Of a stretch of DNA of 64,000 nucleotides, positions 9,232 through 62,619 are shown piece after piece. The DNA comes from an uncultured Chloroflexia bacterium. GTDB taxonomy: Bacteria; Chloroflexota; Dehalococcoidia; UBA2979. Position numbers and translations under genes: made by a program. The stretch is from the NCBI GenBank assembly GCA_963728205.1, contig CAVSIV010000006.1, positions 768,001-832,000 on the forward strand, written 5' to 3'. The first letter of the stretch is position 1. Each line of letters begins with the position of its first letter. The notes below the pieces were generated by a model. It did no database searches. It was not told where the DNA came from and saw only the letters and a list, made by a program, of their open reading frames with translations.

Positions 9232-9327
9232 ATCGGCGGCGTGTCTGCCGCCGCTTGACGGGCGTGTCGCGGCGCGTCCGGGGCGCTGCCGCGCCGTCCG
9301 TCGGCGGCATGTCTGCCGCCGCTGTGG
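9232..9327. repeat. Two REP-A copies in direct orientation (9232-9255, 9300-9323)
   Basis: atcggcggcgtgtctgccgccgcttgacg and gtcggcggcatgtctgccgccgctgtgg, between convergent genes. Confidence 0.9.
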
Positions 9328-9338
9328 GCGGCGCTTGC

Positions 9339-9456
9339 GCGCGGCCGGTACGCGTGCCGCCGGCGTGTGCGCGGCCGGTACGCGCGCCGCCGGCGTGTGC
9401 GCGGCCGGTACGCGCGCCGCCGGCGTGTGCGCGGCCGGTGCGCGCGCGGCCGGCGC
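9339..9456. repeat. 30-bp tandem repeat x4 (last copy degenerate)
   Basis: gcgcggccggtacgcgYgccgccggcgtgt at 9339, 9369, 9399 and 9429. Confidence 0.92.
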
Positions 9457-9459
9457 GCC

Positions 9460-12084
9460 CTACCGCCGGCGACGCGTCCGCGGCTTCGGCGGCGCCGGCT
9501 CCGTGCCGTTCAGCCGCGCCTCGACCGCGGCCATGCGGTCCTTGAGGCGCTGGTTCTCGTCGCGCAGCTTCTCGACCTCCGTGCCGAGGTTGCGCACGTC
9601 CGCCTGCCGGTCCGCGTGCTCGCGGATGTCGCGCGCGGCGACGCGCGCGGAGCGCGCGAGCCGTCCGTCGAGCGTGCGCTCGCGCACGCGGTCGAGCGTG
9701 GCGATCGCGGCGGGGTCGGCGAGCTTCGCCAGCGCGTCGATCGCGGTGAGCTGCACGCGCAGCGGGTCGCCCTCCGCCAGCTCCTCGAGCCGCTCGCGCA
9801 CGCGCACCCGCTCCGCCGGCTCGCAGTACGGCGCGAGCTCGCCGAGCGCGGCCGCCGCCGCGCGGCGCGCGTTCGGGTGCACGCCCCAGCGCGTGTGCTC
9901 GAGCAGCACCGGCAGCACCGCGATGTCGCGCAGCGCGCCCAGCCCGGCGAGCGCCCCGGCGGTGATCACGTCGTTGTGCGCCGGCCGCCCCAGGACCTGC
10001 CGCAGCCGCCGGTCCACCCCCGGCTGCAGCGTCTTGCCGAGCGCCGTCGCTGCCGCGGCCTGCACGTAGTACGAGCGATCGCCGCGCACCGCCAGCAGCG
10101 CGTCGAGCGCGCGCGCCGCACGCGCGTCGCGGAAGTTGCCCAGCGCCGACGCCACCGCGCGCCGCACCCGCGCCGGCTCCACGGCCACGGCCTCGACGAG
10201 CGCGTCGAGCGCGCCTTCCGCCTTCGTACCGCCCAGCGCCGCCGCGATCTCGGCCCGCACGAACGGCGCCTCGCGGTCGTTCAGCAGCGCCGCCCGCAGC
10301 GCCTCGAACGCGCGCGGCGTGCCGACCTTCGCCAGCGCCTTCGCCGCGTCGATCCGCCCGACCGCCTCCGGGTCGCCGGCCAGCCGCGCGCGCAACTGCC
10401 CCTCGCCCGGCTCGAAGTCGAGCGTCTTCAGCACGCGCCCGGCGGGATCGATCGAGACAAACGCCGGCTCCTCGGCCAGCTCGAACACGAACGCGTGCGA
10501 CGCCTCCGTGACCTGCCGCGTGAACCGCCGGAAGTCGCCGCCGACCATGAAGCCGATCTCGATCGGCGTGCGATAGATCGACGTCAGCGCGTCCGGCTGC
10601 TGCGTCTGCGCGAGGTGCACGGTCGCGAGCCGGTGGTCGCGGTCCCACTCGTACGTCGCCTTGAACTCCGGGTGGCCGGCCTTCCACACCCACTGGTCGA
10701 AGAACCAGTCCATGTTGCGGCCGGTCGCCTCCTCCACCGCGCGCTGCAGGTCGTGCGTGAGGACGTCGCGCTCGCGATGCGTCTCCACGTAGTGGTGGAT
10801 CGCACGCCACCACAGGTCGTCGCCCAGGTTGTAGCGAAGCATGTCGAGCACGACCGACCCGCGCTCGTAGAGGTGGCGGTCGAAGATGTCGATCGGGTCG
10901 CGGTAGACGTTCTCGACGATCGGGCGGCGGTAGTGCTTCGCGTCCTCGTCGAGGTACTGGTTCGCCTTCTCCATCACGTCGTGGCGGAACGCGTCCCAGC
11001 CGCGATGGTGCTCGACGAAGAGCGCGTCGAAGTACGTCGCGAAGCTCTCGTTCAGCCAGCCGTGCGACCACTCGCGGCACGTCAGCAGGTCGCCGAACCA
11101 CTGGTGCGCGAGCTCGTGCGCCGAGAGCGAGTCGCACATCTCGACGACGTCCTCGTGGGCGCGCTCGTCGTGCAGCACGGTGTCGGTCATCGTCGTCGCC
11201 GACGTGTTCTCCATGCCGCCGAAGATGAAGTCGGCGATGGCGATGGTGGCGTACTTCGCCCACGGGTAGTCGACGCCAATCGCGTCCGAGAAGAAGCGCA
11301 CCATCTCGGGCGTGCGGCCGAATGCGCGGCGCAGGGCGGCGGCGGTGCCCGTGGCGCCGTAGTACGGGGTCGGCACGCTCCGCGCGCGGTCCTCGACCGC
11401 GTCGAACTCGCCGGCGGTGAGCGTGACGAGGTAGGCGGGGTGCGGCAGGTCCTGCACCCAGTGGAACGTCGAGCGGCGGCGACGGCGGTCGTCGCGCTGC
11501 GACTCGAGCCGGCCGTTCGAGACGGCGGTCCAGCCGAGCGGGACGGTGGCAACGACCTCCGTGGTGAACTTCTCGCCGGGGAAGTCGAGGCACGGGAAGT
11601 AGTGCGGGCTGTCCTCGGGCTGGCCCTGCGTCCAGATCTGCGTCGGGCGATCGGGGTAGCCCGGGTCGGGCGCGTTGAAGTAGAGGCCCCGGCGGGGGCG
11701 GCAGCGATAGCGGACGACCGTCGTGATCGGCTCGTCGGCCGGGCACGCGCCGCCGAGGTGCACGCTCAGCGTGCGGTCGCCCACCGCGAACTCCAGGCGC
11801 TCGCCCTCGCCGTCCGTCACCGACTCGACGTCGAGATCGACGGCGTCGAAGACCGCCGTGTCGAGCTCGTCGATGCGCGGGTGGAAGGTGGTCGTCGCGA
11901 TGCCGTGGACCTCGCGGTTGCGCAGGTCGAAGTCGAACTCGAGCTTGAGGTGCTCGACCTTGAAGAAGCGGTCGCGGCCCCACACCGGCGCGTCGCCCGG
12001 CAGTGGGAACGGGCGGTGGCGAGGGGTGGCGGCGGCGGGCGACGGCTGCAGGCCGTGGCAGTGCTCGAGTTCGAATTCGCTCAC
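9460..12084 (-). CDS. pepN: M1 family aminopeptidase N with C-terminal HEAT repeats and coiled coil
   Basis: GGMEN exopeptidase motif, HELAHQWFG..WLNESFA zinc motif, YERG; HEAT-like helical tail. Confidence 0.92.
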   Translation of the reverse strand: MSEFELEHCHGLQPSPAAATPRHRPFPLPGDAPVWGRDRFFKVEHLKLEFDFDLRNREVHGIATTTFHPRIDELDTAVFDAVDLDVESVTDGEGERLEFAVGDRTLSVHLGGACPADEPITTVVRYRCRPRRGLYFNAPDPGYPDRPTQIWTQGQPEDSPHYFPCLDFPGEKFTTEVVATVPLGWTAVSNGRLESQRDDRRRRRSTFHWVQDLPHPAYLVTLTAGEFDAVEDRARSVPTPYYGATGTAAALRRAFGRTPEMVRFFSDAIGVDYPWAKYATIAIADFIFGGMENTSATTMTDTVLHDERAHEDVVEMCDSLSAHELAHQWFGDLLTCREWSHGWLNESFATYFDALFVEHHRGWDAFRHDVMEKANQYLDEDAKHYRRPIVENVYRDPIDIFDRHLYERGSVVLDMLRYNLGDDLWWRAIHHYVETHRERDVLTHDLQRAVEEATGRNMDWFFDQWVWKAGHPEFKATYEWDRDHRLATVHLAQTQQPDALTSIYRTPIEIGFMVGGDFRRFTRQVTEASHAFVFELAEEPAFVSIDPAGRVLKTLDFEPGEGQLRARLAGDPEAVGRIDAAKALAKVGTPRAFEALRAALLNDREAPFVRAEIAAALGGTKAEGALDALVEAVAVEPARVRRAVASALGNFRDARAARALDALLAVRGDRSYYVQAAAATALGKTLQPGVDRRLRQVLGRPAHNDVITAGALAGLGALRDIAVLPVLLEHTRWGVHPNARRAAAAALGELAPYCEPAERVRVRERLEELAEGDPLRVQLTAIDALAKLADPAAIATLDRVRERTLDGRLARSARVAARDIREHADRQADVRNLGTEVEKLRDENQRLKDRMAAVEARLNGTEPAPPKPRTRRRR

Positions 12085-12216
12085 GTGGCATCCCTCATCT
12101 CCGCGCGCGGTCGTGCACGCCGTGGCGGTCGGAGGATTGTGCGCCGGCGGCCGGAAGCGCAACACGGCCCGGGGTGGCGCGGCCCCGGCGCGCGGCGTCG
12201 CGGCTCGCCGCACGGC

Positions 12217-12304
12217 AAGCGGCGGCAGACATGCCGCCGACAGATGCGCGGCGCCAGCCGCGGACTGCGTCCGCGTCCTGTCGGCGGCATGTCTGCCGCC
12301 GCTT
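12217..12304. repeat. REP-A inverted doublet (REPIN-like), 27-bp arms
   Basis: aagcggcggcagacatgccgccgacag (12217-12243) and its exact reverse complement (12278-12304). Confidence 0.93.
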
Positions 12305-12361
12305 TGGCGACGGCGGCAGGCGTGACGTCTGCCGCGCGCAGCGACCCGCGTGCGACCGTTC

Positions 12362-12928
12362 CTACCGCGGCAGGCGGTCGAGGTACGCAAGCACCAGGCG
12401 CAGCGCCTCCTGCGCGGCGGCCATCTTCGTCGCCTCGCGGTCGCCCGGGAACTGGCACCGCGTGACGCGGTCCTCACCGTCCGCGACAATCCCGATGTAG
12501 TACAGCCCGCCCGGGCGGTCCGGGTTGCCGGTCGGGCCGGCGATGCCGGACTCCGCGACCACCACGTCGGCGTGCATCGCCGCCCGCACGCCGCGCGCCA
12601 TCGCGCGCACCGCCTCCTCGGAGACCGAGCCGTGCGTGCGCAGCGTCTCCGCGTCGACGCCCATCACCTCGACCTTCGCCGGGCCGCGGTACGCGGTGAC
12701 GCCGCCGATGAAGACCTTTGACGACCCCGGCACGTTGGTGAGCAGGTGACCGATCAGCCCGCCCACCGTCGACTCCGCGGTCGCGATCGTGAGACCGCGC
12801 TCGGTCATGCGCTCGACGACCGCGAACTCGCGGCCGTGCGGTGGGGCGCCGCCGGGGTTCGGGCCGGCGGCGGCGGACGTTGCGGCCGGGCGTTCGGGGT
12901 CGGGGTTCGGCGTGGGGGTTGTCGTCAT
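12362..12928 (-). CDS. CinA C-terminal domain protein (PncC-like NMN deamidase)
   Basis: IATAESTVGGLIG..PGSS..HGSVSEE..AMARG..SGIAGPTG. Confidence 0.88.
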   Translation of the reverse strand: MTTTPTPNPDPERPAATSAAAGPNPGGAPPHGREFAVVERMTERGLTIATAESTVGGLIGHLLTNVPGSSKVFIGGVTAYRGPAKVEVMGVDAETLRTHGSVSEEAVRAMARGVRAAMHADVVVAESGIAGPTGNPDRPGGLYYIGIVADGEDRVTRCQFPGDREATKMAAAQEALRLVLAYLDRLPR

Positions 12929-12969
12929 GCGGGGCTCCTCGCGACGTGCCGGCCCGCCGCGCGGGCCGG

Positions 12970-13515
12970 TCAGCGCGCAGGATAGCCCGGCGCCGCGACG
13001 ATCTTGCCGATCTGCCCGATGTGATCGCGGTCGTGGACCTCCTGGAAGAGAAACCAGCCGCGGCAGTTGAGGTCGCCGAAGAACGCATGCGCGGCGGCCC
13101 CGACGAGGTCCGGCTGCGCGGGCAGGCGCGTCGGCAGCGCGGCGAAGTCCACGGAGTGCTCGGTGAGCTGGCGGCGCAGCGCGGCAATGTCGTACGGGGC
13201 GCTCTCCGGCTGGGCGCCCGGCCCCGTCGAGCGCGCGGCCGGCGCGCCGGAGGCGAGCGCCTCGATCACGCGCAGCACATCGCGCGACGCGTTCAGCGCG
13301 TGGCGTGCGACCTCGACGATGCTCCACCCTTCGCCGGCCGGCTTCCACTCGGCCTGCCCCTGCGAGACCGGCTCGAGCAGCGCGAGCAGCTCGAGGCGCG
13401 CGCGCACGACCGTGGGCCAGAGCGCGATGAAGTCGCGCTCCGCGGACTCGGTGGTGAGGTAGTCGCGCAGGCGAGCGATCTGTCGCGTGCGGGCGTCGTC
13501 CGCCTCGGCGGTCAC
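12970..13515 (-). CDS. DinB-superfamily protein
   Basis: WKPAGEGWSIVEVARH..HAFFGDLN..W..F..HDRDHIGQI; GTG overlaps the upstream stop. Confidence 0.82.
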   Translation of the reverse strand: MTAEADDARTRQIARLRDYLTTESAERDFIALWPTVVRARLELLALLEPVSQGQAEWKPAGEGWSIVEVARHALNASRDVLRVIEALASGAPAARSTGPGAQPESAPYDIAALRRQLTEHSVDFAALPTRLPAQPDLVGAAAHAFFGDLNCRGWFLFQEVHDRDHIGQIGKIVAAPGYPAR

Positions 13516-14267
13516 GAGGCGGCGCCGCCGCGGCCCGTCACGCGCTGCGTCGCGCGGCCGAAGCGCGTGCGGTTGTCGTCGCCGCCGCGCAGCACGAGGT
13601 CCGACTGCGCCTCGAGCGCGGCCGCGTTGCCGGGCGCCGCCGCGTCGATCACGCGCTTCGCCCACGACATCGCCAGCGGCGAGCCCGACGCGATCTGCGC
13701 CGCGATCTCGGCGACCGTGGCGTCGAGCGCATCCGGCGCCACGACGCGGTTCACGAGCCCGATGCGCGCGGCCTCCTCGGCGTCCACGACGCGCGACGTG
13801 TAGATCAGCTCCTTCGCGAGCGCAGGCGCGATCAGCTTCGCCAGCCCGGCCGCTCCGACCACGAGCCCGTAGTCGGCGCCGGGAAAGCGGAACCGCGTGC
13901 GGTCGGTCACGACCCGCAGGTCGCACGCGCACGCCAGCAGCGCGCCGGCGCCGTACGCCGGCCCGTCGACCGCCGCGATGGTCGGCTTCGGCGACGCCCC
14001 GACACGCGCCGCGGCGTCCGCGGAGGGGTTGAAGCGGCGCTGGCCGCCCTCGTACGCGGCGAGCGACTCCGTCATGTCGGCGCCGGCGCTGAACGCGCCG
14101 TCGGTGCCCTCGACGACGATCACGACGACAGAGTCGTCCGCGTCGAGCCGCGCCATCGCGTCCTGGATCTCGGCGGCCATCGCCGCGCTGATCGCGTTGC
14201 GCTTGTCCGGGCGCTCGAGGCGCATGCGGCCGATGCCGTCGTCCACGCGTACCGCGATCAGTGACAT
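13512..14267 (-). CDS. Enoyl-CoA hydratase/isomerase family protein
   Basis: RPDKRNAIS, AFSAGADM, PKPTIAAVDGPAYGAG, IGLVNRVV; GGAGG RBS 6 nt before the ATG. Confidence 0.92.
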   Translation of the reverse strand: MSLIAVRVDDGIGRMRLERPDKRNAISAAMAAEIQDAMARLDADDSVVVIVVEGTDGAFSAGADMTESLAAYEGGQRRFNPSADAAARVGASPKPTIAAVDGPAYGAGALLACACDLRVVTDRTRFRFPGADYGLVVGAAGLAKLIAPALAKELIYTSRVVDAEEAARIGLVNRVVAPDALDATVAEIAAQIASGSPLAMSWAKRVIDAAAPGNAAALEAQSDLVLRGGDDNRTRFGRATQRVTGRGGAAS

Positions 14268-14279
14268 GTTCATCCTCCA

Positions 14280-14329
14280 AGCGGCGGCAGAGATGCCGCC
14301 GACGGGTCGGCGGCATCTCTGCCGCCGCT
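14280..14329. repeat. REP-A variant doublet: perfect 24-bp inverted repeat with a 2-nt spacer
   Basis: agcggcggcagagatgccgccgac-gg-gtcggcggcatctctgccgccgct. Confidence 0.95.
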
Positions 14330-14364
14330 CTGCTTCGTTCGCGGGCGCCTGCCGCCGGGCTTCG

Positions 14365-15636: not shown

Positions 15637-15735
15637 GCGGGGCGTACCTTCCAGCGTGCGTGAGAGTCGGGGCCGCGGGGATAGTACGAGGCGCGTCCGC
15701 GGGGGCCAAATTCGATGACCGGGCGGCGTGCCACC

Positions 15736-15846
15736 CGCGCCCTCCCGGACGCGGCCGTGCGCACTTCCGGACGGAACGACGCGCCCTCCCGGACGCGACC
15801 GTGCGCGCTTCCGGACGGAACGACGCGCCCTTCGGACGCGGTCGTG
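15736..15846. repeat. 44-bp tandem repeat x~2.5 abutting the left arm of the RAYT1 element
   Basis: cgcgccctcccggacgcgRccgtgcgcRcttccggacggaacga at 15736 and 15780, partial at 15824. Confidence 0.88.
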
Positions 15847-15847
15847 T

Positions 15848-16619
15848 GTCGTCAAGCGGCGGCAGCATGCCGCCGATGCCACCGACGGCGCGAGCCGTCG
15901 CGGTCACCGGCGCGTCCCGCAATGCCGCGGGGCCCCGAAACCCTCCGGGTGTCCGTCGCCCTCGCGCGGCCGACACTTCACCCCATGCCCCCAGCACCGG
16001 TCGACCGTACGTGGCTCCTGACGTGGACGACCTACGGCACCTGGCTGCCCGGCGACGCACGAGGTTCGAAGATCCGCGTGCGCGACGGCCGAGGCGCGCG
16101 TGCGACGGAGCTCGTTCCCGGGGGGACCCGCAACGCGAATGCGCTCCGAGACGCCGCGCGTGCACGTCTCAAGCAGGACCCGATCCGCTTGACGAGCAAG
16201 CAGGCGGAGGTGGCCGCCGACGCGATCCAAGAGGAGGCGGAGCGGAGAGGATGGACCGCGTTTGCGATCGCCGTGATGGCGAACCACGCACACGTCACCG
16301 TCGGCGTCGCGGGTGACCCCGCCGGCGGATCCCTCCTGCACGCGCTGAAGTCGCACGCCTCTCGCGTGCTCAACATGGAGTGGCGTCGGCCTGCCGCGGG
16401 GACGTGGTGGACTCAGGGAGGCTCGACGAGGGTGCTGAGGTCGGAACCGGCGGTGATCGCAGCCGTTCGATACGTCCGCGATCAGGAGTATCCGCTCGTG
16501 GTGCGGCTCGACACGCGCATGTGGGGTGGCGCCGTGTGAGGTCGTGTCGGGGCGCGGTCGACGGAGCGGCGGCCCTGGCCGCCGCTCGCATCGGCGGCAT
16601 GCTGCCGCCGCTTGACGAC
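15848..16619. mobile_element. REPtron 1: RAYT gene flanked by perfect 32-bp inverted REP-A variant arms
   Basis: gtcgtcaagcggcggcagcatgccgccgatgc (15848-15879) is the reverse complement of 16588-16619. Confidence 0.88.
15985..16539 (+). CDS. REP-associated tyrosine transposase (RAYT/TnpA-REP, HUH Y1)
   Basis: WLLTWTTYGTWLPGD.RG, HUH motif VMANHAHV, LK..ASR.LN, WWTQGGS, catalytic AAVRYV..Q. Confidence 0.88.
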   Translation: MPPAPVDRTWLLTWTTYGTWLPGDARGSKIRVRDGRGARATELVPGGTRNANALRDAARARLKQDPIRLTSKQAEVAADAIQEEAERRGWTAFAIAVMANHAHVTVGVAGDPAGGSLLHALKSHASRVLNMEWRRPAAGTWWTQGGSTRVLRSEPAVIAAVRYVRDQEYPLVVRLDTRMWGGAV

Positions 16620-16690
16620 GGGCGTCGCGGTCGCGCGCGGCGGACGGGGGCGCCGCTTGACGACGGGCGCGGGGGCGCCGGGCCAACCCG

Positions 16691-17965: not shown

Positions 17966-18171
17966 CGGATCGCCTCCATCTGTGTTCGTCACGCGTCGTC
18001 CACACGAACGTCGGCGGGGCGCGGGGGGCGTGCGCGAGTCCCGGAGCCGTGCCAGCGGATACTAGGACATCGCGACGCAGGGCCGGGAATCACCGCCGCC
18101 CCATCGCGCCGGCGACGCCGCCGGGGCGCGCTCTTGTCGGCGTCCGACCCCCTGCATACGCTGACGCGACC

Positions 18172-19447: not shown

Positions 19448-19658
19448 GCCGGCTGAGCCGCCACTCTGACCGCCCGACTGCTCAACCGGCTGACACCGCG
19501 CCGTTCCTCCGGCGGCGGGCGGCGGGCGGCGGCATCGGGGTACACCCCACATTGAAGGCTGACATCACGAGACATAGGATGACTGGAATACGCACGTTCT
19601 GACCGGTCCGTGCGTTCGAACACACGTCCAGCAGTGATCAGCCCTACGGAGCCCCCCA

Positions 19659-20948: not shown

Positions 20949-21078
20949 CGCCGGCGCGGGCGCGTCCCCCATCCCCCCTCGGCCCTCCCGGCGCAGCCTC
21001 GCCGAGCGATCGGCTACAGTGCGCCGCGTCACCGCGCCCGGCCTCGCCGCGCGTGCCGCACCGCTGAAGGAGGGGACG

Positions 21079-25002: not shown

Positions 25003-25891
25003 CGTCGAGCGGCAGTTGGCAGACTGCCGATCTCTCCCAACCCTGCGCACGCCGCGAAGCGTGTCGGCGCGCCCTCACCGTCCGCCCGACAATCTCAGAG
25101 CCGCCCGAGAAGCTCCTTCCACTCCGCTTCGACCCACAGCGCGAGGCACCCCTTCTGCTCCGCCACGTACCGCACGCCCGCGCCCACCGCGAGTTCGCTC
25201 CGCAACACGCGTCGCGACCCGCCCTGCGTCCACCAGGCGACGCGCCGCCCGTACGCGCGGTTCAGCTCGCGGGCCCCGAACGCCTTGAACCGTCCCAGCG
25301 CAGCGAGCGCTTCCTCGGTGTCGCCCGGCGGCGGCAGCCCGACGACGAGGTGAACGTGGTTCGCCATCACCGCGGCCACGAGGAGAGGCCAGCGCTGGAT
25401 CCGCGCGGTCGCGCGTATTTCACCGAGCACCGTGTGCGCCTGGGAAGCCGTCAGCAGCACCGGCGGCTCTCGCAGCGCGTCGAGGGCCGCCCGCCGCAAC
25501 GCGGGGTTGTCGCGGTCGAGCGGCGTACCCGGCGTGTTGTGCCGCGTGCGTTCGCCGGAGGGTCGGCGGACCGTGCTCACGAAGCCGCGCCGGTCGCCGG
25601 GGAGGCGCGTCGCGTTGGTGGTCCAGGTGAGCAGCCAGTAGCGGTGTTCCACGACGACGGGTATGCACCGACGAGGTGCGGGCGAACAGGGGGGCCATCA
25701 GATTTCGGGGGCAACATTCGAGCGGCAGCCGGGAGGGTGCCGATCGCCCCCGCGGCAGCCCCGACGCACCGTTCGCCCGCGCGGCAGCCGCGACGCGCCG
25801 ATCGCCCCGCGACGGCCGGGGCGCGCCGACACGCTCGGCGGTTCAGCACGCGGTTGGGAGAGATCGGCAGTCTGCCAACTGCCGCTCGACG
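25003..25891. mobile_element. REPtron 2: RAYT gene flanked by perfect 40-bp inverted REP-B arms, plus an internal REP-B copy (~25718-25745)
   Basis: cgtcgagcggcagttggcagactgccgatctctcccaacc (25003-25042) is the reverse complement of 25852-25891; a sub-terminal IR agcgtgtcggcgcgc / gcgcgccgacacgct is also present. Confidence 0.88.
25095..25652 (-). CDS. Second REP-associated tyrosine transposase (RAYT, HUH Y1)
   Basis: WLLTWTT..LPGDRRG, VMANHVHL, FK..GAR.LN, WWTQGGSRR, GVRYVAEQ; homologous to RAYT1. Confidence 0.88.
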   Translation of the reverse strand: MEHRYWLLTWTTNATRLPGDRRGFVSTVRRPSGERTRHNTPGTPLDRDNPALRRAALDALREPPVLLTASQAHTVLGEIRATARIQRWPLLVAAVMANHVHLVVGLPPPGDTEEALAALGRFKAFGARELNRAYGRRVAWWTQGGSRRVLRSELAVGAGVRYVAEQKGCLALWVEAEWKELLGRL

Positions 25892-25985
25892 TGCGGCGAT
25901 GTGCGGCGATGTGCGGCGATGTGGGCATGTGCGGCGATGTGCGGCGATGTGCGGCGATGTGCGGCGATGTGCGGCGATGTGCGGC
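25891..25985. repeat. 10-bp tandem repeat (gtgcggcgat): 8 perfect copies, 1 variant, 1 partial
   Basis: Runs from the outer end of the REP-B arm to the rnhA stop codon. Confidence 0.95.
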
Positions 25986-46951: not shown

Positions 46952-47086
46952 CAGAAGTACCTCCTGAAACCAACGTACCGGGTAGGCGAAAGGGACACGT
47001 TTGCAACGGGGAGGGGCGGGGGGACGGGGGGCGGAGGGGGGCGGACGGACGGGGGACTGGAGACGGACGGACGTGCGTCCGCCCTA

Positions 47087-47162
47087 CTGTCGGCGGCATG
47101 TCTGCCGCCGCTGTGGCGGCGACGGCGGGGGCCCAAAGCGGCGGCAGATATGCCGCCGACAG
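47087..47162. repeat. REP-A inverted doublet (tail-to-tail orientation)
   Basis: ctgtcggcggcatgtctgccgccgct (47087-47112) and agcggcggcagatatgccgccgacag (47137-47162). Confidence 0.9.
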
Positions 47163-48809: not shown

Positions 48810-48842
48810 CGAGGGTGTGCGCGGAACGCCGAATGTCGAATG

Positions 48843-49007
48843 TCGAGCGGCAGCTGGAAGGCTGCCGATCTCCCCAATCCCGTCGCTCACCGCGACGCTC
48901 TGCGGGCGCATCGGGGGCGGGCGGACGATGGGCATCGCCGTCCCCGGGGAAGCACGACGGCCCGCCTGTCGCGCACCGTGATCGGCAGCCTTCCAGCTGC
49001 CGCTCGA
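48843..49007. repeat. REP-B inverted doublet, perfect 28-bp arms
   Basis: tcgagcggcagctggaaggctgccgatc (48843-48870) and its reverse complement (48980-49007); preceded by a 7-bp duplication cgaatgt x2. Confidence 0.92.
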
Positions 49008-49897: not shown

Positions 49898-50257
49898 GCC
49901 GCGCTCTGATCCTCCTCCGGCCGCGTCAGCTCGCGCTGGGCACGGCCTCCGTCGGCGCGCGGTCGGGGTGAGGAGCGAAGGTCCCCACGCGGCCGCGTCG
50001 GCTTGCGCCGGGCACGGCCACCGTCGGCGCGCGATCGGGCTGAGGTGCGCAGTCGCCGGCGCGGTCTCGCGTCGGCGGCAGCTGGAAGGCTGCCGATCTC
50101 AGCGCGATCCGCGCAGTCGCCGGCGAGACACGAGCCGCGCGGGACGGATCGGCACCCTGCCGGGTGCCGCTCGAGGCACACCTCCGCGGCGACCGCGCGC
50201 CGACGGAGCCCGCGACCGGCGCAAGCCGACGCAGGCGGAGGAGGATGAGAGCGCGGC
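49898..50257. repeat. Composite palindromic element between the two tRNA-Ser genes: 68-bp outer IR enclosing a REP-B doublet
   Basis: 49898-49965 versus the reverse complement of 50190-50257 match at 59/68 by hand count; REP-B arms at 50071-50100 and 50147-50174; ~47-bp direct duplication at 49919/49990. Confidence 0.85.
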
Positions 50258-50264
50258 GAAACAC

Positions 50265-50356
50265 GGAGAGGTGCTGGAGTGGTTGAACAGGCTCGCCTGG
50301 AAAGCGGGTAGAGGGCGAAAGCTCTCTCGTGGGTTCGAATCCCACCCTCTCCGCCA
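50265..50356 (+). tRNA. tRNA-Ser(GGA)
   Basis: ggagagg/cctctcc-gcca; anticodon loop CT GGA AA; long variable arm agagggcgaaagctctct. Confidence 0.96.
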
Positions 50357-50365
50357 GCAAGATCA

Positions 50366-50391
50366 CACGCCGCGCCCCGTGCGCGGCGTGT
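50366..50391. terminator. Putative terminator hairpin between the tRNA and the convergent kinase gene
   Basis: cacgccgcgc-cccgt-gcgcggcgtg followed by a short T tract. Confidence 0.55.
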
Positions 50392-50412
50392 TCGTCTCCG
50401 CTCGGCGCGTCG

Positions 50413-53652: not shown

Positions 53653-53782
53653 GCCATGCAATCCCCCCACCGCCGGAGGCGAGGATACGCCCCGCGCGAG
53701 GCTGCGACGGCAATGTGATGCGCGCGCGGCAGGCGGCGGCGGGGACGGCGCCAATCTCAACGCGGCCTTCCGGCCGCGACCT

Positions 53783-54660
53783 GTCGGCGGCATGTCTGCC
53801 GCCGCTTTGGTCGGCGGCGTGTCTGCCGCCGCTTTGGTCGGCGGCATGTCTGCCGCCGCTTTGGTCGGCGGCATGTCTGCCGCCGCTTTGGTCGGCGGCG
53901 TGTCTGCCGCCGCTTTGGTCGGCGGCATGTCTGCCGCCGCTTTGGTCGGCGGCATGTCTGCCGCCGCTTTGGTCGGCGGCGTGTCTGCCGCCGCTTTGGT
54001 CGGCGGCATGTCTGCCGCCGCTTTGGTCGGCGGCATGTCTGCCGCCGCTTTGGTCGGCGGCATGTCTGCCGCCGCTTTGGTCGGCGGCGTGTCTGCCGCC
54101 GCTTTGGTCGGCGGCGTGTCTGCCGCCGCTTTGGTCGGCGGCGTGTCTGCCGCCGCTTTGGTCGGCGGCGTGTCTGCCGCCGCTTTGGTCGGCGGCGTGT
54201 CTGCCGCCGCTTTGGTCGGCGGCGTGTCTGCCGCCGCTTTGGTCGGCGGCGTGTCTGCCGCCGCTTTGGTCGGCGGCGTGTCTGCCGCCGCTTTGGTCGG
54301 CGGCATGTCTGCCGCCGCTTTGGTCGGCGGCGTGTCTGCCGCCGCTTTGGTCGGCGGCGTGTCTGCCGCCGCTTTGGTCGGCGGCGTGTCTGCCGCCGCT
54401 TTGGTCGGCGGCGTGTCTGCCGCCGCTTTGGTCGGCGGCGTGTCTGCCGCCGCTTTGGTCGGCGGCATGTCTGCCGCCGCTTTGGTCGGCGGCGTGTCTG
54501 CCGCCGCTTTGGTCGGCGGCATGTCTGCCGCCGCTTTGGTCGGCGGCGTGTCTGCCGCCGCGTTGGTCGGCGGCGTGTCTGCCGCCGCTTTGGTCGGCGG
54601 CGTGTCTGCCGCCGCTTTGGTCGGCGGCATGTCTGCCGCCGCGCTGGTCGGCGGTGTGTC
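53783..54660. repeat. 27-bp tandem array of REP-A hairpins, 32 full units plus a partial unit
   Basis: Unit gtcggcggcRtgtctgccgccgctttg; 32x27=864 bp from 53783 to 54646; the partial unit runs into the SNF2 stop codon; no unique spacers. Confidence 0.97.
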
Positions 54661-57600
54661 AGTCCGCGGCAAACAGCTCCTCGACGTCGGACTCGCTCAG
54701 GTCGAACGCGGCGCCGGCCTCCGCGTCGAAGATGCCGGCGGCGAGGTGGCGCTTGCGGTCCTTCAGCGACTCGATCTTCTCCTCGATCGAGTCGGCGGCG
54801 ACGAGCCGGTAGACGAAGACGGGCTTGTCCTGGCCGATGCGGTGCGCGCGGTTCGTCGCCTGCTCCTCGGCGGCCGGGTTCCACCACGGGTCGTAGTGGA
54901 TCACCGTGTCGGCGGCGGTGAGGTTCAGGCCTACGCCGCCGGCCTTCAGGCTGACCAGGAACACCGGCACCGCGCCCGACTGGAACGCGCGGATCGCCGC
55001 CTCGCGGTCGCGCGTGTCGCCCGTGAGCAGCGCGTACCGCAGGCCGACCGCGTCGAGCGCCTCCTCGATCAGCGCCAGCATCGAGGTGAACTGCGAGAAC
55101 ACGAGCACGCGCCGGCCGTCCTCGACGAGATCCGGCAGCATCTCCAGCAGCCGGTCGAGCTTCGCCGATCGCGCGCGCGTCGCCTTCGCCGTCTCCAGCC
55201 GCAGCAGCCGCGGGTCGCAGCAGGCCTGGCGCATCTTCAGCAGCGCGTCGAGCACCACGATGTGGCTGCGCGCGAGGCCGTGCCCGGCGATCGCCCGGCG
55301 CACGCGCTCGTCCATCGCGAGGCGGACGCTCTCGTAGAGGTCGCGCTGCGCCGGCGCCATCTCCACGCGCTCCACCATCTCGGTGTTCGGCGGCAGCTCG
55401 CTCGGCGACCTCGCCCTTCGTGCGGCGCAGCAGGAACGGCCGCAGCCGCCGCGCGAGCCGGCGGCGACGGTCGACGTCGCCGTCGCGCTCGATCGGGCGC
55501 GCGCCACTGCTGGTTGAAGTGCTGGCGGTCCCCGAGGAAGCCCGGCGAGACGAACGCGAAGAGCGACCAGAGGTCGCCGAGGTGGTTCTCCATCGGCGTG
55601 CCGGTGAGGCAGAAGCGCTGGCGGGCCCGCAGCTCGCGCGCCGCCCGCGACACCGCCGCGTTCGGGTTCTTGATCGTCTGCGCCTCGTCCAGCACCACCG
55701 CGTGCCACTCACGCGCGCCCAGCACCGCCGCGTCGCGCGACAGCAGCGGGTAGGTGGTGACGACGACGTCGTGCTCGGCGATCGCGTCGAAGCGCGCGGC
55801 GCGGTCGGGGCCGTGCAGCACGAGCACGCGCAGCCCGGGCGCGAAGCGCGCCGCCTCGTCGCGCCACACCGACGCCACGCTCGTCGGCGCCACGATCAGC
55901 GACGGCCGGTCCGCGCGACCGCACTCCCGCTCGATCGCCAGGTGCGCCAGCGTCTGGACGGTCTTCCCCAGCCCCATGTCGTCCGCGAGCACCCCGCCGA
56001 GCCCCGCCGCCCCGAGCAGCTGGAGCCAGTCGACCCCGCGCGCCTGGTAGTCGCGGAGCGTCGCCCCGAACCACGCCGGCGGCTCGACGTGCGGGATCCC
56101 GTCCGCGCCGCGCAGCGTCGCGCCGAGCGACCGCAGCCGCTCGCCGCCCTGCCACTCGACGCCGGCGCCGGCCTCCTCCTCCGCCAGCGCCAGCTCGGCG
56201 GCGCTGCGCGTCGAGAGCCGCACCGTGCCGTCGCCGGCGTCCACCAGCCCGGCGTCGAACAGCTCGCGCAGCGCGCGGGCGATCGCCCACAGCCGGCGCG
56301 CCGGCAGCGCGAGCGTGCGGCCGTCGGGCAGCGGCACGAAGCTCAGGGCGTCGTCCTCGGGCGGGTCGCCGGCCAGCAGCGCGTCGAAGCGGCGCGTCGC
56401 GATCAGCTGCACCAGCGGCTCGGTCAGATCCACGCGCTCGCCGTCGACCACGACGCCCAGGTCGAGGTCGAACCAGTCGATGCCCGTCGTCTCGTCGAGG
56501 CGCGCCTCGAGCGGCCCGTCCGCGCGGACGACGTGCACCGGGAAGTCGGGCGCGACCGCGACCTCCCACCCCTCCGCGCGGAGGACCGGCGCGTCCCGCG
56601 CGAGGAAGCGCAGCCAGGCGTCATCGCCGCCGCCGCGGACGGTCATGTCCCCGGGCTCGACGCCCGCGGCCGCGTACGGTCCGGGCTCGGGAAGCGGCTG
56701 CAGGCCGAGGCGGCGCAGGCGCTGGTGCGCCGCGCGCTCGGCCGCCGTGTCGCGCTCGACCTCGATCATGCGCTGGTCGCGCACGAAGCGATCGCGGTCG
56801 CGGCTCTCGTGCGCCGGGATCGTCGCCGCGCCGTACCGGAACGCCAGGCGCGCGACCGGGACCGGGCCGGGACGCCACGCCGCCCACGCGGGGGCGAACG
56901 GCGGCGGCTGCACCGTCAGCAGCAGCTGCGGCGCCGGCGGTCCCGCGACGTGCTCCATCGGCTGCAGCGGCGGCGGCTGCAGCGCGGCCAGCGTCGGCAG
57001 CCGGGCGGCCAGCGCCGAGCCCAGGAGCTGCTCGCGTCCGGCCGGCACCGGCGGCGCCGCGAAGAGCGCCTCCGCGACGCGCGGCGAGAGCCCGGTGTCG
57101 AGCGGCCCCGCCAGCCCGGCGCCCGCGTCGACGTACCACGGCGGCGCGAGGCACACCGCCTCGACGCGCGGCCGCGCCGTCTCCGCCGCAGCGCGGCGCG
57201 TGCCGTGCGCGCCGCGGTCAGTGGCAGCGTCCCCGCCGCGGTCATCGCCGGCCGGCTCGCCGTCGTGCGCGCCGCGCGCATCGCCGGCCGGCTCGCCGTC
57301 GACGACGTCGAACTCCAGGTGCTGCGCCGCGTCGTCGCCCAGCCGCCAGCGCGGCCGCGCCGTCCGCGGCTCGCCGCGGGCGAGCGCGGGGCCGGCCAGG
57401 TCGCCCCACCGCGCGCGCCCCGTCGCGAGGATCGCGTCGAGCACGCGCGCGCCCTCCTCGCCGGCGAGTGCGATCGCGTCGGTGCCGTAGTAGACGCGGC
57501 GCGCGATCCCGTCGAGCCCGGCGAGGATGGCGTGATCCGAGCGCCGCAGGAACCGCGCCGGCGTGCCCTGGACCGCCTGCACCGGGCGGTAGGGCGTGAC

Positions 57601-58257
57601 GCGATCGGAGAACGTCCCGTCCTTGAGCAGCCGCACCGACAGCGGCCGCACGACGAGCCGCGGGGTGCCGCGCGGCGCGGGCCGCCGCAGCTCGAGGACG
57701 TAGATCAGCCGCTGCCGGATCTCCGGCGGGTACGCCTCGCCCTCGGACGCGGACGCCGCCGTGACCTCGTCGAGCCAGGCCGCGAGGTCCGCGCCCAGCG
57801 CCGGCGTCTCGCGGCGCGCCGCCGGCTCGCGGTCGGCCGCGTCGTCCGCCGGCTGCTCGCCGGACGGCGGCGGCGTTCGCGGCGGGACGGCACTCGCGTC
57901 GGGCTCCCCCGCGTCCCGGATCGACGCCAGCAGCGTCGCCGCGATGTGCTTGCAGTCGAGCTGCATCGGGCAGGTGCACGACCCGCGAATCAGCCACCCG
58001 CCGACGCGCCGCGGCCGCACCACGATCGAGACGTTGTACGGCGCCCGCCGGCTGCCCTGCACCTCCGCGTCGACGAACGTCGCGTCGTCGACGTCCTTCA
58101 CCCGGACCCGCGAGACGCGCCCGTCGCGCCGGTAGGCTTCGCCGCGCTCGACGGCCGACCGCGGCAGCGCGCGCTCCACGTCCTCGCGCGACAGCGGCGC
58201 GGGGCCGGAGGGCGGCGTGTCACGGCGCGAGTACCCGCGGCGGCGAGCGGGGGTCAT
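54659..58257 (-). CDS. SWIM zinc-finger SNF2-family helicase/ATPase (frameshifts near 55500 and 55400)
   Basis: [15 protein letters not shown]; [58 protein letters not shown]. Confidence 0.92.
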
Positions 58258-58351
58258 CAGGCACAGTCCGGAGCAGGGGCGGCGAGTCGGATCCCGGGCA
58301 TACACGAGCAGCCTAGCGGATCGGCGCGCGGCGGGATGAAGAGGCGGCCGG

Positions 58352-58762
58352 CTACTCCGGCAACAGCCGGTACGGCCGTCCGTCGCGCGACCGCAGCGTA
58401 GAGAAGTGGCGGCGGTCGAGCGTGACGATCAACTCCGTCCCAAGCCGATCGGCGAGCACGGCGACGGATGCGTCGGTGCCACCCAGCGGGAAATCCCCGG
58501 AACGCTCCACGAGAGCCGCGATCATCTCCCACTCACCGGACGCCGGCGGCTCGACCTCGAGGCGCGCCAGACCGCGCAGGAATGCCCCCTCCACCGATGG
58601 ACCGAGTCGCCGCCCGACGAGGTACGTGACCTCGGCGATGACCAGCGCCGGGACGACGAGGTCGAGGTCCGCGCGCTGCAGCACCTCGACACAACGGCGG
58701 TGATCCTGGTCGTCCGCGTCGACCGCCGCGTAGAGCGGTCCGGCATCAACGACCGCGATCAT
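58352..58762 (-). CDS. vapC: PIN-domain toxin (VapC)
   Basis: VVDAGPLYA..D.DH, VIAEV, GGTDAS, TLDRRHF; overlaps the antitoxin. Confidence 0.9.
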   Translation of the reverse strand: MIAVVDAGPLYAAVDADDQDHRRCVEVLQRADLDLVVPALVIAEVTYLVGRRLGPSVEGAFLRGLARLEVEPPASGEWEMIAALVERSGDFPLGGTDASVAVLADRLGTELIVTLDRRHFSTLRSRDGRPYRLLPE

Positions 58763-58985
58763 TCCCGACCCACTCGGCGTCGAGAATCGCCTCGATGTCG
58801 CGCGCCGTGGAGTGATGACCGCTGCGACCGAGGGCGATAAACGGGAGATCGCGGTGCTTGCCGCGGCTCAGTCGGGCCTCGATCGCTTCGCGCGCAACCT
58901 GCGAGACGCCGACGCCGCGCCGTCTCGCCTCACGCTCGAGTGCGGCGGCGAGGTCATCGGGCAGACTGATCGTGGTGCGCTTCAT
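58746..58985 (-). CDS. vapB: CopG/RHH antitoxin (VapB)
   Basis: MKRTTISLPDDLAAALEREARRRG..VSQVAREAIE. Confidence 0.9.
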   Translation of the reverse strand: MKRTTISLPDDLAAALEREARRRGVGVSQVAREAIEARLSRGKHRDLPFIALGRSGHHSTARDIEAILDAEWVGNDRGR

Positions 58986-59105
58986 ACACGCATACTAGCA
59001 CACGATGGCCCGTGTCCCCGCGGCAGGTGTCGAAGCGTGCCGGGACAGCGGCTGCTCAGGGGCCGGGGGTCGCCACCTCGTGGTGGCTGAGGCGCCCACT
59101 GCACA

Positions 59106-59210
59106 CGGCGGGCCTGAAGCCCGCCGCGCGCCCAGGCGGCGGCGGATACGCCGCCGACGGGTCGCGGCCAGAAGGCCGCGTCGATGTCGGCGGCGTGTCT
59201 GCCGCCGCTT
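59106..59210. repeat. Hairpin cggcgggc-ctgaa-gcccgccg followed by a REP-A inverted doublet (59135-59158 / 59186-59210)
   Basis: Direct reading; the right arm overlaps the sortase stop codon. Confidence 0.85.
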
Positions 59211-60039
59211 AGCTCACGCGCTCCGCGCGCACGACCACGCGGTCGCTGTACGAGTGCGTCTGGAAGTCGAAGTCGCCGCCGCAGGTGTAGAGCGTGATCG
59301 AGTCGACCGACACGTCGCTGCTCCAGATCGACGCCCAGTCGTTGTAGGACTCGCTCAGCTTCTTCGTCCACGCCACCGCGTACTTCAGCTGCTGGCCGTT
59401 GTAGTCGACCTCGATGATGTCGCCGGGCGACAGCAGCCGCAGGCCCGAGAAGATGCCGGGGCCGCGGTAGTACGAGTTGTCCGCGTAGGGCACGTGCGCC
59501 GCGTAGTCGACGTGGCCCGAGAAGATCGCGTTGCCGCCGGAGCCCGGCGCGCCGCCCATGCCGGGGAAGAGGCGCAGGTCGTACCAGGTCACCTCGACCG
59601 GGTTGTAGGGCGCCGTCATCACCGCGTCGGAGCCGACCAGTGCCGACCGCACCGGGCCGTCCACCCCGAGCACCGGGATCTTGAGGCGCGCGTAGCCGGC
59701 GTCGGGCGGGTCGCCGAACTGCTTCACCAGCGCGTCGAGCGTCGTGATCGTGCCCGGGTCCTGCGTGGCGTCGGCCGCCGGCGTGGCGCTGCCGGTCCCC
59801 GACGGGGTCGCCGTCCCGGTCCCGCCCGCCGTGGCCGACGGGCTGCCCGACGCCGCCGGCGTCGCGGTCGCCGTGCGGACGCTCACGCCGTCGGCGGAGC
59901 CCTTCGAGCACGCCGCCGCGAGCAGCGCGACGGCCGCGAGCGCCGCCAGCGCCGCGACGAGCGGCAGGCGGCCAAGACGACGGCGAAGGGGGGCGGGGTC
60001 GGTGTCCTGCGCATCCTGCCGCGGCGTGACGGGCGCCAT
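59209..60039 (-). CDS. Class F sortase, probable lipoprotein
   Basis: Lipobox-like LAAAC; LKIP.LGVD, VTWY, PG..GNAIFSGHVD (His), ITLYTCGG.F (Cys), DRVVVRA (Arg). Confidence 0.9.
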   Translation of the reverse strand: MAPVTPRQDAQDTDPAPLRRRLGRLPLVAALAALAAVALLAAACSKGSADGVSVRTATATPAASGSPSATAGGTGTATPSGTGSATPAADATQDPGTITTLDALVKQFGDPPDAGYARLKIPVLGVDGPVRSALVGSDAVMTAPYNPVEVTWYDLRLFPGMGGAPGSGGNAIFSGHVDYAAHVPYADNSYYRGPGIFSGLRLLSPGDIIEVDYNGQQLKYAVAWTKKLSESYNDWASIWSSDVSVDSITLYTCGGDFDFQTHSYSDRVVVRAERVS

Positions 60040-60216
60040 CGACGATCCTCCTGTGCGACGCCCCCGCCACCCGGCGACCGGGTCATCGACCGGGCGCACG
60101 GAGCGGCGCGCGGGTCGGCTGGTCGATGCCCTCGGGGCGACTCTATCGGGTCTATCGGGAATACGGTCGTTCCATCCTAGCGCGGGTCGCGGGTTGGTTC
60201 ACCGGGCGCCTGCGCC

Positions 60217-60333
60217 TCCGCCCACAGCGGCGGCAGACATGCCGCCGACAGGCCGCGGGCGTCGGCCCGCGTCCGGTGCGCGCCTCGCGGCCCGCAGTCC
60301 GTCGGCGGCATGTCTGCCGCCGCTGTGGGCGGA
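60217..60333. repeat. REP-A inverted doublet, perfect 33-bp arms
   Basis: tccgcccacagcggcggcagacatgccgccgac (60217-60249) and its reverse complement (60301-60333). Confidence 0.94.
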
Positions 60334-60346
60334 AGCGCTGCCTGCA

Positions 60347-61060
60347 TCACCGCGCCACGAACACGATCGTCCCGGCGAGCACCATCTGCGACGGGTACGC
60401 CGCGTCGAACGCCGCGCGCGCGAACGGGGGCGCCCCCGGGATCAGCACGTTCGCCTTGCCGCCGTCGAACGTCGTCACCGACATCCCGCCGGCGGCCAGC
60501 GTCGCCGCGGCGAGCTGAGCGACCGTGCCGCCCGTCCACACCGCGGGGTTGATCCCGCGCGCGGTGAGCGGCCGGTCGAACGTCGCCAGGCCGCCCGAGG
60601 CGGGCAGGTACACCGTGACCGTCGCCGGCGCCGACGTCACGCCGCCGTTCGAGAAGGCGTAGGTGAAGGCGTCGAGCCCCGCCGCCCCGACGTTCGGCGT
60701 GTAGTCGACGCTCGCCGTGCACACCACCAGCACCGGCGGCTGCCCCGTCGGCGGCTGCGCCGGCACCGTGCAGCTCGGCGCGCCCATGCCCGAGAGCGTG
60801 CCGAAGTGCGGACCGGCGACGATGGCGAACGCCGGGTGGTCGGCGGGCACGGCCGAGTCGGAGCCGTCGAACGTGACCGTCACCGGCTGCGGCGGCGTCG
60901 TGGACGCGATGGTCAGCTGGGCGTCGTGAGCGACCGGCGCGGGCGTCGGGGTGACGGCGAGGGCGGCGGACGGCCCGCCGGCGCCCGCGAGCAGCAGCAG
61001 CGCCGCGACCACCGCGCCGGCCGCGAGGGCGATTCGGATGACGGGGAAGCCGTGCCGCAC
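60347..61060 (-). CDS. Secreted protein: signal peptide, Big_9-like Ig domain, conserved ~75-aa C-terminal domain
   Basis: FAIVAGPHFGTL..YTPN...G.DAFTY..SNGG.TS.PATVTV; C-terminus TFDRPLT..G.N.A.W.GGTV..PGAPPF..AF. Confidence 0.78.
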   Translation of the reverse strand: MRHGFPVIRIALAAGAVVAALLLLAGAGGPSAALAVTPTPAPVAHDAQLTIASTTPPQPVTVTFDGSDSAVPADHPAFAIVAGPHFGTLSGMGAPSCTVPAQPPTGQPPVLVVCTASVDYTPNVGAAGLDAFTYAFSNGGVTSAPATVTVYLPASGGLATFDRPLTARGINPAVWTGGTVAQLAAATLAAGGMSVTTFDGGKANVLIPGAPPFARAAFDAAYPSQMVLAGTIVFVAR

Positions 61061-61167
61061 CTGGACCTCCGCCCGTGCAGGTCGAACCGTATCAGCCTAA
61101 CGCGCGAACCGGGCGATCCGTTCCGGCGGGCACGGGATTGGGTGGGCGGCCCGGCCGCCGGTCGCCG

Positions 61168-61323
61168 CAGCGGCGGCAGACATGCCGCCGACAGCCCGGC
61201 GGCGCGCGCCGCCGGCGCGCGGGACGCGCCCGCGTTCCGACGAGCCCCTCGTGTGAGAGAGGCTGCGACGCGAATCGCGGCCCAGCGGGCCGCGATTTGT
61301 CGGCGGCATGTCTGCCGCCGCTG
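61168..61323. repeat. REP-A inverted doublet (26-bp arms) with internal hairpin
   Basis: 61168-61193 / 61298-61323; inner aatcgcggccc-agc-gggccgcgatt. Confidence 0.92.
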
Positions 61324-61375
61324 TGGGTTGCGCGAGCAGACCGCGGATTGCGCCGCGATGTGCCATGGGTGCGAT

Positions 61376-61392
61376 ATTCTGATTTTCAGAAT
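61376..61392. promoter_or_regulatory. AT-rich palindrome ATTCTGA-TTT-TCAGAAT, likely antitoxin operator/promoter
   Basis: Perfect 7-bp IR about 30 nt upstream of the AbrB gene in otherwise GC-rich DNA. Confidence 0.6.
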
Positions 61393-61423
61393 TACCAGCA
61401 GACACGCGCCGCGGAGGCCCCGC

Positions 61424-61699
61424 ATGCCAGACGCTCCGGCCCGACACAAAGTGGTCAGAACCCTCGCGCGAGGGCAGGTCACCATCCCCAACGAATTCCG
61501 CCGCGCACTCGGGATCGAAGCCGAGACGATGCTCAGCGTCACGCTCGTCGGCGACCACCTCGAGATCGCCCCCGTGCGGGTCCCGAGCGACCTGCGCCGG
61601 TACACGGACGAGGACATCGCCCGCTTCCTCGAAGAGGATCGCCTCGACGAAGAGACGGCGAGGCGCGTCCGCAAGCTCATCGAGCGCGGCTCCAGCTAG
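61424..61699 (+). CDS. AbrB/MazE/SpoVT-family antitoxin
   Basis: RGQVTIPNEFRRALGIE..L.V..LEIAP; GGAGG RBS. Confidence 0.88.
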   Translation: MPDAPARHKVVRTLARGQVTIPNEFRRALGIEAETMLSVTLVGDHLEIAPVRVPSDLRRYTDEDIARFLEEDRLDEETARRVRKLIERGSS

Positions 61700-61700
61700 C

Positions 61701-62141
61701 GTGGCGCCGGCACGGGGACTCGTCTTCCTCGACGCGAGCGTCCTCGTCGCCGCCGCGCACTCCCCCACCGGCGGCTCCGCCGCCGCGCTGCTGGTGTGCG
61801 GAGGGCCGCGCTTTCGCGGCGCTGTCACGATGCGCGTGCTCGAGGAGGCGCGCCTGAACGTCGCCGAGAAGTTCCCCGGCGGGGATCTCGCGCGGTTCTA
61901 CCAGCAGCTCGCGGCGCTCGAGCCGGAGATCGTTCCGCCGCCGCCGGCGGAACTCCTCGCCGAGTGCGTTCCGCTGACCACGGAGAAGGACGCCCACGTG
62001 CTCGCCGGCGCGCTCGGCTGCCGCGCCGCGTACCTGCTCACGCTCGACCGCCGCCACCTGCTGACGCGCGCGGTGGGCGAGGCGGCCCTGTCGACGCGCG
62101 TGCTCACGCCGGGCACGTTTCTGCAGGAGCTGCTGGCGTAA
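61701..62141 (+). CDS. PIN-domain toxin
   Basis: VFLDASVLVAA..SPTG, VLEEARLN, KDAHVLA.A, LLTLDRRH, LTPG.F. Confidence 0.88.
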   Translation: MAPARGLVFLDASVLVAAAHSPTGGSAAALLVCGGPRFRGAVTMRVLEEARLNVAEKFPGGDLARFYQQLAALEPEIVPPPPAELLAECVPLTTEKDAHVLAGALGCRAAYLLTLDRRHLLTRAVGEAALSTRVLTPGTFLQELLA

Positions 62142-62152
62142 GCCCGGCGCCG

Positions 62153-62619
62153 CACAGCGGCGGCAGACATGACGCCGGCAGGTGCACGGCGCGAGCCGCG
62201 CGGTGGCCTGCGGTTGCGTCGGCGGCGGACGCCGCCCGTCTGTCGGCGGCATGTCTGCCGCCGCTGTGGACGGAACGGTGACCGCCGCGGCGGCCTGCGG
62301 TTGCGTCGGTGGCGGACGCCGTCCGTCTGTCGGCGGCATGTCTGCCGCCGCTGTGGACGGAACGGTGACCGCCGCGGTGGCCTGCGGTTGCGTCGGTGGC
62401 GGACGCCGCCCGTCTGTCGGCGGCATGTCTGCCGCCGCTTTGGACGGAACGGTGACCGCCGCGGCGGCCTGCGGTTGCGCCGGCGGCGGACGCCGCCCGT
62501 CTGTCGGCGGCATGTCTGCCGCCGCTGTGGACGGAACGATGACCGCCGCGGCCGCCTGCGGTTGCGTCGGTGGCGGACGCCGTCCGTCTGTCGGCGGCAC
62601 ATGTCTGCCGCCGCTGTGG
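62153..62619. repeat. REP-A left arm (62153-62180) followed by an 87-bp tandem array x~5, each unit containing a REP-A
   Basis: REP starts at 62242, 62329, 62416, 62503 and 62590 (period 87). Confidence 0.95.

Follow-up and report, generated by a model that had tools for sequence, protein, structure and literature searches.

The class 3 TnpA_Y1 transposases have been described as a family in which a genome has several paralogues and hundreds of scattered copies of their flanking hairpins (Quentin et al. 2018, PMC6006769). For bacterial interspersed mosaic elements (BIMEs), rolling-circle-like amplification driven by transposases associated with repetitive extragenic palindromic (REP) sequences (REP-associated tyrosine transposases, RAYTs), together with flank capture, was proposed (Nunvar 2010, PMC2817692; Ton-Hoang 2012, PMC3333891), and REPs tandemly repeated with flanking DNA, in clusters beside RAYT genes, were reported (Bertels & Rainey 2011, PMC3116915; Di Nocera 2013, PMC3733652). 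E. coli TnpA-REP cuts both sides of the REP at many sites, and cutting at dinucleotides on both sides of the REP is described in PMC8266576. PMC3333891 ends by asking for an in vivo RAYT assay. Here, we analyzed a window of 64,000 nucleotides (positions 768,001 to 832,000 of contig C6, CAVSIV010000006.1) from an uncultured Chloroflexia bacterium (GCA_963728205.1), in which two RAYT-like genes are accompanied by REP hairpins and by tandem arrays that abut them. REPs in this genome are local hotspots of tandem duplication, and this is a real, enriched and widespread feature of known REP/RAYT systems. As such, the suggestion of an earlier note that the window holds a new system, a site-directed repeat generator, has to be withdrawn: what it holds is a class 3 Y1/REP system (PMC6006769), and rolling-circle-like amplification by RAYTs (PMC2817692, PMC3333891) had been put forward before.

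The assembly comprises 4.13 Mb at 72% GC in 6 contigs, with a completeness of 89% and a contamination of 5.6%, and encodes eight paralogues of the Y1 family, two of which are broken and two of which sit in the window. RAYT-like gene 1 (15985-16539, plus strand; 184 residues from the ATG at 15985) has HAH and YVRDQ motifs, and RAYT-like gene 2 (25095-25652, minus strand; 185 residues) has HVH and YVAEQ motifs, so that the HUH motif is present in both proteins and the catalytic motif reads Y-x-x-x-Q, clearly not Y---NP. The class 3 motif is given as 'Y- - - -Q' in PMC6006769, a spacing that cannot be matched to the letter with Y-x-x-x-Q. The predicted structure of the gene 1 product (predicted local distance difference test score of 86) matches ISDra2/IS200 TnpA, IS200/IS605 transposases and E. 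coli TnpA-REP (4ER8). A family profile of 167 positions is conserved from residue 1, PF01797 spanning residues 62-159 only, and extended N-terminal conservation in a profile of ~155 residues is likewise reported for class 3 TnpA_Y1 (PMC6006769). A class 2 RAYT/REPtron identity was rejected because the NF047646 scores (31.9 and 28.3 bits) are far under the cut-off of 80, no NP follows the tyrosine and no GT[AG]G foot is present. The window enzymes fit the class 3 Y1 family of PMC6006769, with which they share the HUH motif, the longer N-terminus, the paralogues and the high-copy flanking hairpins. Relatives of the enzyme were found in 3/3 congeners and, with matches beyond E 1e-5, in 0/37 other genomes searched; the best 80 genome loci with relatives belong mostly to Planctomycetota, and 1615 cluster representatives match the family at E<=1e-10. 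An IS200-like Y1 protein without catalytic residues is encoded at C6:175961-176416 (L299) and a similar one at G007:C1:2648674-2649018 (L365), in two genera. In these proteins the HUH motif is degenerate (DYV, DYL) and Phe replaces the catalytic Tyr, and they are possibly domesticated, catalytically dead TnpA.

The REP hairpins follow the grammar AGCGG-stem-loop-C[CT]GA, with 760 matches in the genome, 703 of them non-coding, and 840 copies including near matches. Stems are mostly 8-9 bp, and subfamilies differ in stem sequence while pairing is kept. Considering that stem mismatches read on the AGCGG strand are G-T in 91 cases and A-C in 21, the AGCGG strand is the one that folds. Of the Y1 genes, 6/8 have REPs of this set no more than 400 bp away. 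Their feet (CACAG, CAAAG, GCAAG, TCGAG and others) have the general form nnAG, and the foot given in PMC6006769 is CnGA; a CnGAG foot is seen in 9/840 copies here, relatives show CCGAGC and similar feet with AGC as the common core, and the relative locus L177 carries a hairpin type listed in Table S1 of PMC6006769. At least five more hairpin families occur genome-wide, of which families F and G, with abutting arrays at 5/40 and 3/27 flanks, may be the REPs of other class 3 paralogues. In a search for enzyme genes bracketed by copies of the other repeat families, what lay inside three inverted pairs was a methyltransferase, an epimerase and an enoyl-CoA hydratase, and two GIY-YIG matches fell within long frames.

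The earlier note had stated that every intergenic tandem repeat noticed in it abuts or contains a REP. For the window this holds at a Tandem Repeats Finder (TRF) score of at least 50, where the nearest REP is at most 16 bp away for 8/8 merged non-coding arrays; an array scoring 45 stands 583 bp away. The statement does not extend to the genome. There, 153 arrays were non-coding, as far as our own Markov-model segmentation, on which all non-coding counts hinge, divides coding from non-coding; 77 of them lie at AGCGG REPs, 25 at other dispersed families and 51 at no defined repeat family. The enrichment that the note had proposed to look for against shuffled intergenic placement is present beyond intergenic space. 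Among REP-free arrays with a TRF score >=70, at least 80% identity and a period >=5, 35/111 have a REP no more than 30 bp away, compared with 3.6 expected from placement in same-class intergenic regions, and three other thresholds agree (44/226 vs 10.0, 27/130 vs 5.9 and 24/87 vs 3.3 expected). On outer flanks with 40 bp of room, abutting arrays were found at 30/552 REP flanks (5.4%), 31/6602 random non-coding points, 15/1251 single-copy hairpins, and other multi-copy hairpins without the foot (1/191) or with a similar foot (3/67); shuffled flanks gave 0-5 arrays per 1680. The concentration at REPs goes beyond GC content and ordinary hairpins. Solo REPs carry arrays as often as paired REPs (11/199 and 14/273), so long cruciforms are not needed.

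The arrays are most common at the REPs that flank RAYT genes. Within 400 bp of a RAYT gene, 7/12 REP loci have an abutting array of score >=50, compared with 30/393 other loci (p=1.7e-5). This agrees with PMC3686654, where RAYTs were proposed to act preferentially on flanking REPs. The units are built of local sequence: 23/28 units with a period of at least 14 occur nowhere else in the genome. Many consist of flank, foot and left arm, or of right arm and flank, beside one intact REP. The view that units are unrelated in sequence is true only in part, since 2/8 units listed in the earlier note contain the REP and 15/50 REP-near arrays enter the REP by at least 3 bp. BIME-2 resembles these loci in its local tandem amplification at REPs, ascribed there to RAYT nicking (PMC2817692, PMC3333891), but BIME-2 units hold whole REPs, whereas many units here hold none or half and their junctions show no cut motif. 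A unit of whole REP plus flank is seen at 53783 and 62199, and not at 9339, 15736 and 25887. The 27- and 87-bp arrays at the former two positions also match the tandem clusters of REP singlets or pairs (REP doublets forming hairpins, REPINs) in PMC3116915 and PMC3733652, although the text available from these two papers describes no REP-free or half-REP minisatellites beside a single intact REP, as found here. The word 'tandem' is absent from the main text of PMC6006769. In the literature searched, with subscription journals mostly outside it, no description of REP-free or half-REP arrays and no paper pairing a RAYT or tyrosine transposase with the term 'minisatellite' was found.

We also compared 160 relative loci, of which 159 were mapped and 4 duplicates removed. 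The 112 kb up to 400 bp from the gene hold 69 arrays, and the 363 kb more than 600 bp away hold 44, a contrast overstated by an outer zone that is mostly coding. Half-REP arrays of 11-24 bp, with up to 10 copies and units that end in the arm or loop, are frequent in the relatives, and also occur on contigs with k127/k141 names (L037, L089, L101), which we take to be short-read assembler tags. In two congeners assembled in 260-310 contigs, a REP-free or partial array abuts 5/26 REP loci. In the genome G003, 7/29 REP copies fall within the first 150 bases of a contig and further ones close to contig ends, so that counts of REPs and arrays are probably too low in fragmented assemblies. This genome has 110 non-triplet arrays in 4.1 Mb, 54 of them at REPs, and two family members without a Y1 match have none in 400 kb each.

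We favor the reading that these are class 3 RAYT/REP loci whose tandem arrays arise by slippage re-copying at RAYT-bound or RAYT-nicked hairpins, and put its probability at roughly 0.45, a little short of even. The RAYT would bind the hairpin on the AGCGG strand and nick nearby, and host repair or replication synthesis would stall at the bound hairpin. The 3' end could then slip back a short way on GC-rich microhomology, so that the flank, or the flank and one arm, is copied again, and ordinary slippage and unequal exchange would enlarge the array in a number of rounds. Such arrays are best explained as by-products of REP turnover and not as the output of a programmed generator. If the REP-free and half-REP arrays are enzyme-dependent, array gain would be a cheap read-out of RAYT activity and an unrecognised origin of variable number tandem repeats in bacteria, and this activity could be tested directly in vivo through the excess beside RAYT genes. 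If they are not, REPs are still measurable slippage hotspots, with a bearing on repeat typing and assembly breaks.

Several observations weigh against slippage at RAYT-bound or RAYT-nicked hairpins. We infer RAYT dependence from position only, and the RAYT-flanking REP loci number 12 only, with no distance gradient past 400 bp (0/11 loci at 0.4-5 kb). Single hairpins with a stem of at least 11 bp, taken together, also carry arrays (9/394 flanks), over which the REP excess is 2.5-fold (p=0.02), and REPs away from RAYT genes (24/531) do not differ significantly from these long hairpins (p=0.075). The 5' and 3' flanks show no bias (22/399 vs 8/153), though a strand-specific enzyme need not give one; a 5' bias hinted by the window, which appeared because inverted pairs point their 5' ends outward, was gone per flank. 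Arrays near Y1 genes are not more common in class 3 (48/155) than in class 2 (14/39) or class 1 (4/14, three of the four more than 400 bp away), a coarse comparison in which classes were called by motif and 5/59 remained unclassified. Half-REP arrays at the class 2 loci L272, L279 and L288 likewise led us to drop class 3 specificity. Furthermore, a family member without a class 3 RAYT, having only a dead-type Y1 match, shows 9 non-triplet arrays in 400 kb, all of them more than 45 bp from the repeats that are frequent in it and resemble insertion sequence ends. A wider claim is a tentative one against which we would lean: that site-anchored nicking by RAYTs generally gives rise to new bacterial mini- and microsatellites, with the enzyme acting mostly on REPs beside its own gene and converting arbitrary flanks or half-hairpins into variable arrays. 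If true, arrays would record in vivo RAYT activity, and at hundreds of intergenic sites they would seed local regulatory variation.

Hairpin-only slippage or host hairpin processing, in which the REP stalls a polymerase or is cut by host nucleases and the RAYT merely placed the REPs, would equally account for the lack of side bias and of a fixed junction, and we regard it as unlikely, albeit the best of the rivals. Polymerases do slip in vitro at a hairpin with short direct repeats (PMC4134008), where a stall at the hairpin and primer misalignment on short repeats resemble the steps envisaged here, and single hairpins with long stems carry arrays more often than random points do. However, that work used archaeal polymerases in vitro, without REP or RAYT, and does not explain the REP specificity seen here. 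Stem-matched single hairpins (8-10 bp, away from other families) are at background, with arrays at 4/886 flanks (0.5%), compared with 6/322 for stems of at least 11 bp, other multi-copy hairpins are as poor in arrays, and the excess beside RAYT genes is left unexplained.

Two RAYT cuts with rejoining and rolling-circle-like copying, as modeled in PMC2817692 and PMC3333891 and extended to REP-free flanks, would suit the REP-containing units of 27 and 87 bp and the RAYT-proximal excess, and E. coli TnpA-REP does cut at a distance on both sides and join strands (PMC3333891). The array ends do not bear this out. In a junction set of 62 arrays from this genome and relatives (38/100 removed as whole-REP units or duplicates), the ends fall anywhere between 30 bp outside and 17 bp inside the REP, and no dinucleotide exceeded expectation (CG 40 vs 37.1, CT 9 vs 11.4). 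No fixed nick position or CT junction was seen at them, and 39/62 units lack CT while 21/62 lack both CT and AG. Among arrays of at least 3.5 copies, 3/20 are perfect and 17/20 imperfect, with a period of 13 bp or less in 7/20, and units of 6-13 bp and REP-free arrays fit poorly with such copying. In a mobilome study, 8 E. coli REP regions yielded no circles, with a library method that the study itself says is unfit for single-stranded DNA (10.1101/2024.07.17.603846). The site-directed rolling circle of the earlier note thus finds no echo in the junctions or in the mostly non-identical copies, and we consider two-cut copying distinctly improbable.

It is still harder to credit that REPs and arrays both gather simply where length change is harmless. 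The 51/153 arrays that touch no repeat family, and RAYT loci with roomy flanks, speak for such tolerant sites, but shuffling within the own intergenic region weakens the idea (35/44 REP-free arrays near a REP vs 24.7 expected, p=1e-4), and many units contain REP bases. An artefact of long-contig metagenome assembly is very improbable, because like structures are present in the two congeners and in L037, L089 and L101, even though there are several seemingly frameshifted genes, including two RAYTs, and completeness and contamination are as given above.

Five of the arrays listed in the earlier note, at 9339, 15736, 25891, 53783 and 62199, are solid, three being REP-free and two REP-containing. 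Around RAYT-like gene 1, a REP-free array of 44 bp x2.4 (15736-15840) stands 14 bp from the upstream REP (15855-15876, plus strand). Downstream (16591-16669, minus strand), a REP at 16591-16612 is followed by a 19-bp copy at 45-bp spacing, which had been taken as a tandem duplication (16606/16651); the match consists of REP foot and flank, is not head-to-tail, and TRF lists nothing there. RAYT-like gene 2 has a REP downstream (25008-25030, plus strand) and an inverted REP pair upstream (25721-25886) with a 29 bp x3.8 array (79%) between. A REP-free array of 10 bp x10.1 (25887-25985) directly follows the REP at 25864-25886, at 0 bp, and fills the gap to the rnhA stop codon; 3' of rnhA, a different gene occupies the orthologous site in G001 and G003, where REP and array are both absent. 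Two directly oriented REPs (9233-9323, minus strand) show a 68-bp imperfect duplication to 9360, and the REP-free array of 30 bp x3.9 (9339-9455, 96%) lies 15 bp from the 5' end of the REP at 9301-9323.

Further inverted REP pairs occur at 12165-12303 (12218-12240 and 12281-12303), where a weak array of 21 bp x1.9 stands outside the pair at a distance of 13 bp, and at 61169-61322, and those at 14280-14329, 59135-59209 and 60226-60324 are without an array. At 47006-47159, a G-rich array of 25 bp x2.7 (76%) lies 16 bp from tail-to-tail REPs at 47090-47112 and 47137-47159. At 48830-49004, the 7-bp repeat (x2.4) does abut the inverted REPs at 48846-48868 and 48982-49004, but as a repeat it is weak on its own, with a TRF score of 34. 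The ~47-bp duplication at 49919/49990, read before as an amplified local flank at a REP, is neither: its 48-mer has 40 BLAST matches on three contigs, many in tandem clusters, the nearest REP of the set is more than 100 bp off (50149), and a degenerate copy stands at ~50073. The two copies (49919-50038, 3' of tRNA-Ser) belong not to the AGCGG family but to a second dispersed family of ~48 bp. This second family, seen also at C6:564k, 1525k and 175k and at C1:352k and 184k, makes tandem clusters of its own, one of them directly behind the dead TnpA gene of L299.

Outside these loci, the region C6:900000-1280000 holds 1 REP of the set in 380 kb compared with 20-70 per 100 kb in adjoining regions, and recent acquisition and a mis-joined piece are both possibilities; GC skew and gene orientation showed no clear replichores in the genome. 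In G007, a stretch of 370 bp that is patterned in purines and pyrimidines and has no evident gene lies between two long short-unit arrays (L306:9073-10194). Repeated frame switches in the window at 1-4000 may be pseudogenes or indel errors, as was likewise considered for the Snf2-type helicase at 54659-58305, which is split across two frames near 55400-55500.

The largest array, 27 bp x32.5 (53783-54660, minus strand; copy numbers here, this one above all, are as assembled), has a unit of REP plus 4 bp and ends at the stop codon of the helicase C-terminal open reading frame, which has one weak match in three congeners. It is without spacers, so a CRISPR-like reading was rejected, and a tRNA-Gln called by ARAGORN at 54557-54634, within the array, was taken as false. 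Two interspersed loop variants, the commonest of the REPs, alternate along it. At the start, the triplet A,G,A occurs three times in succession, and the pattern is a sign either of stepwise growth or of consensus noise. At 62156-62623, a REP at 62156 is followed by the 87 bp x4.9 array (62199-62623), the unit of which combines the partner REP with flank and a portion of the spacer.

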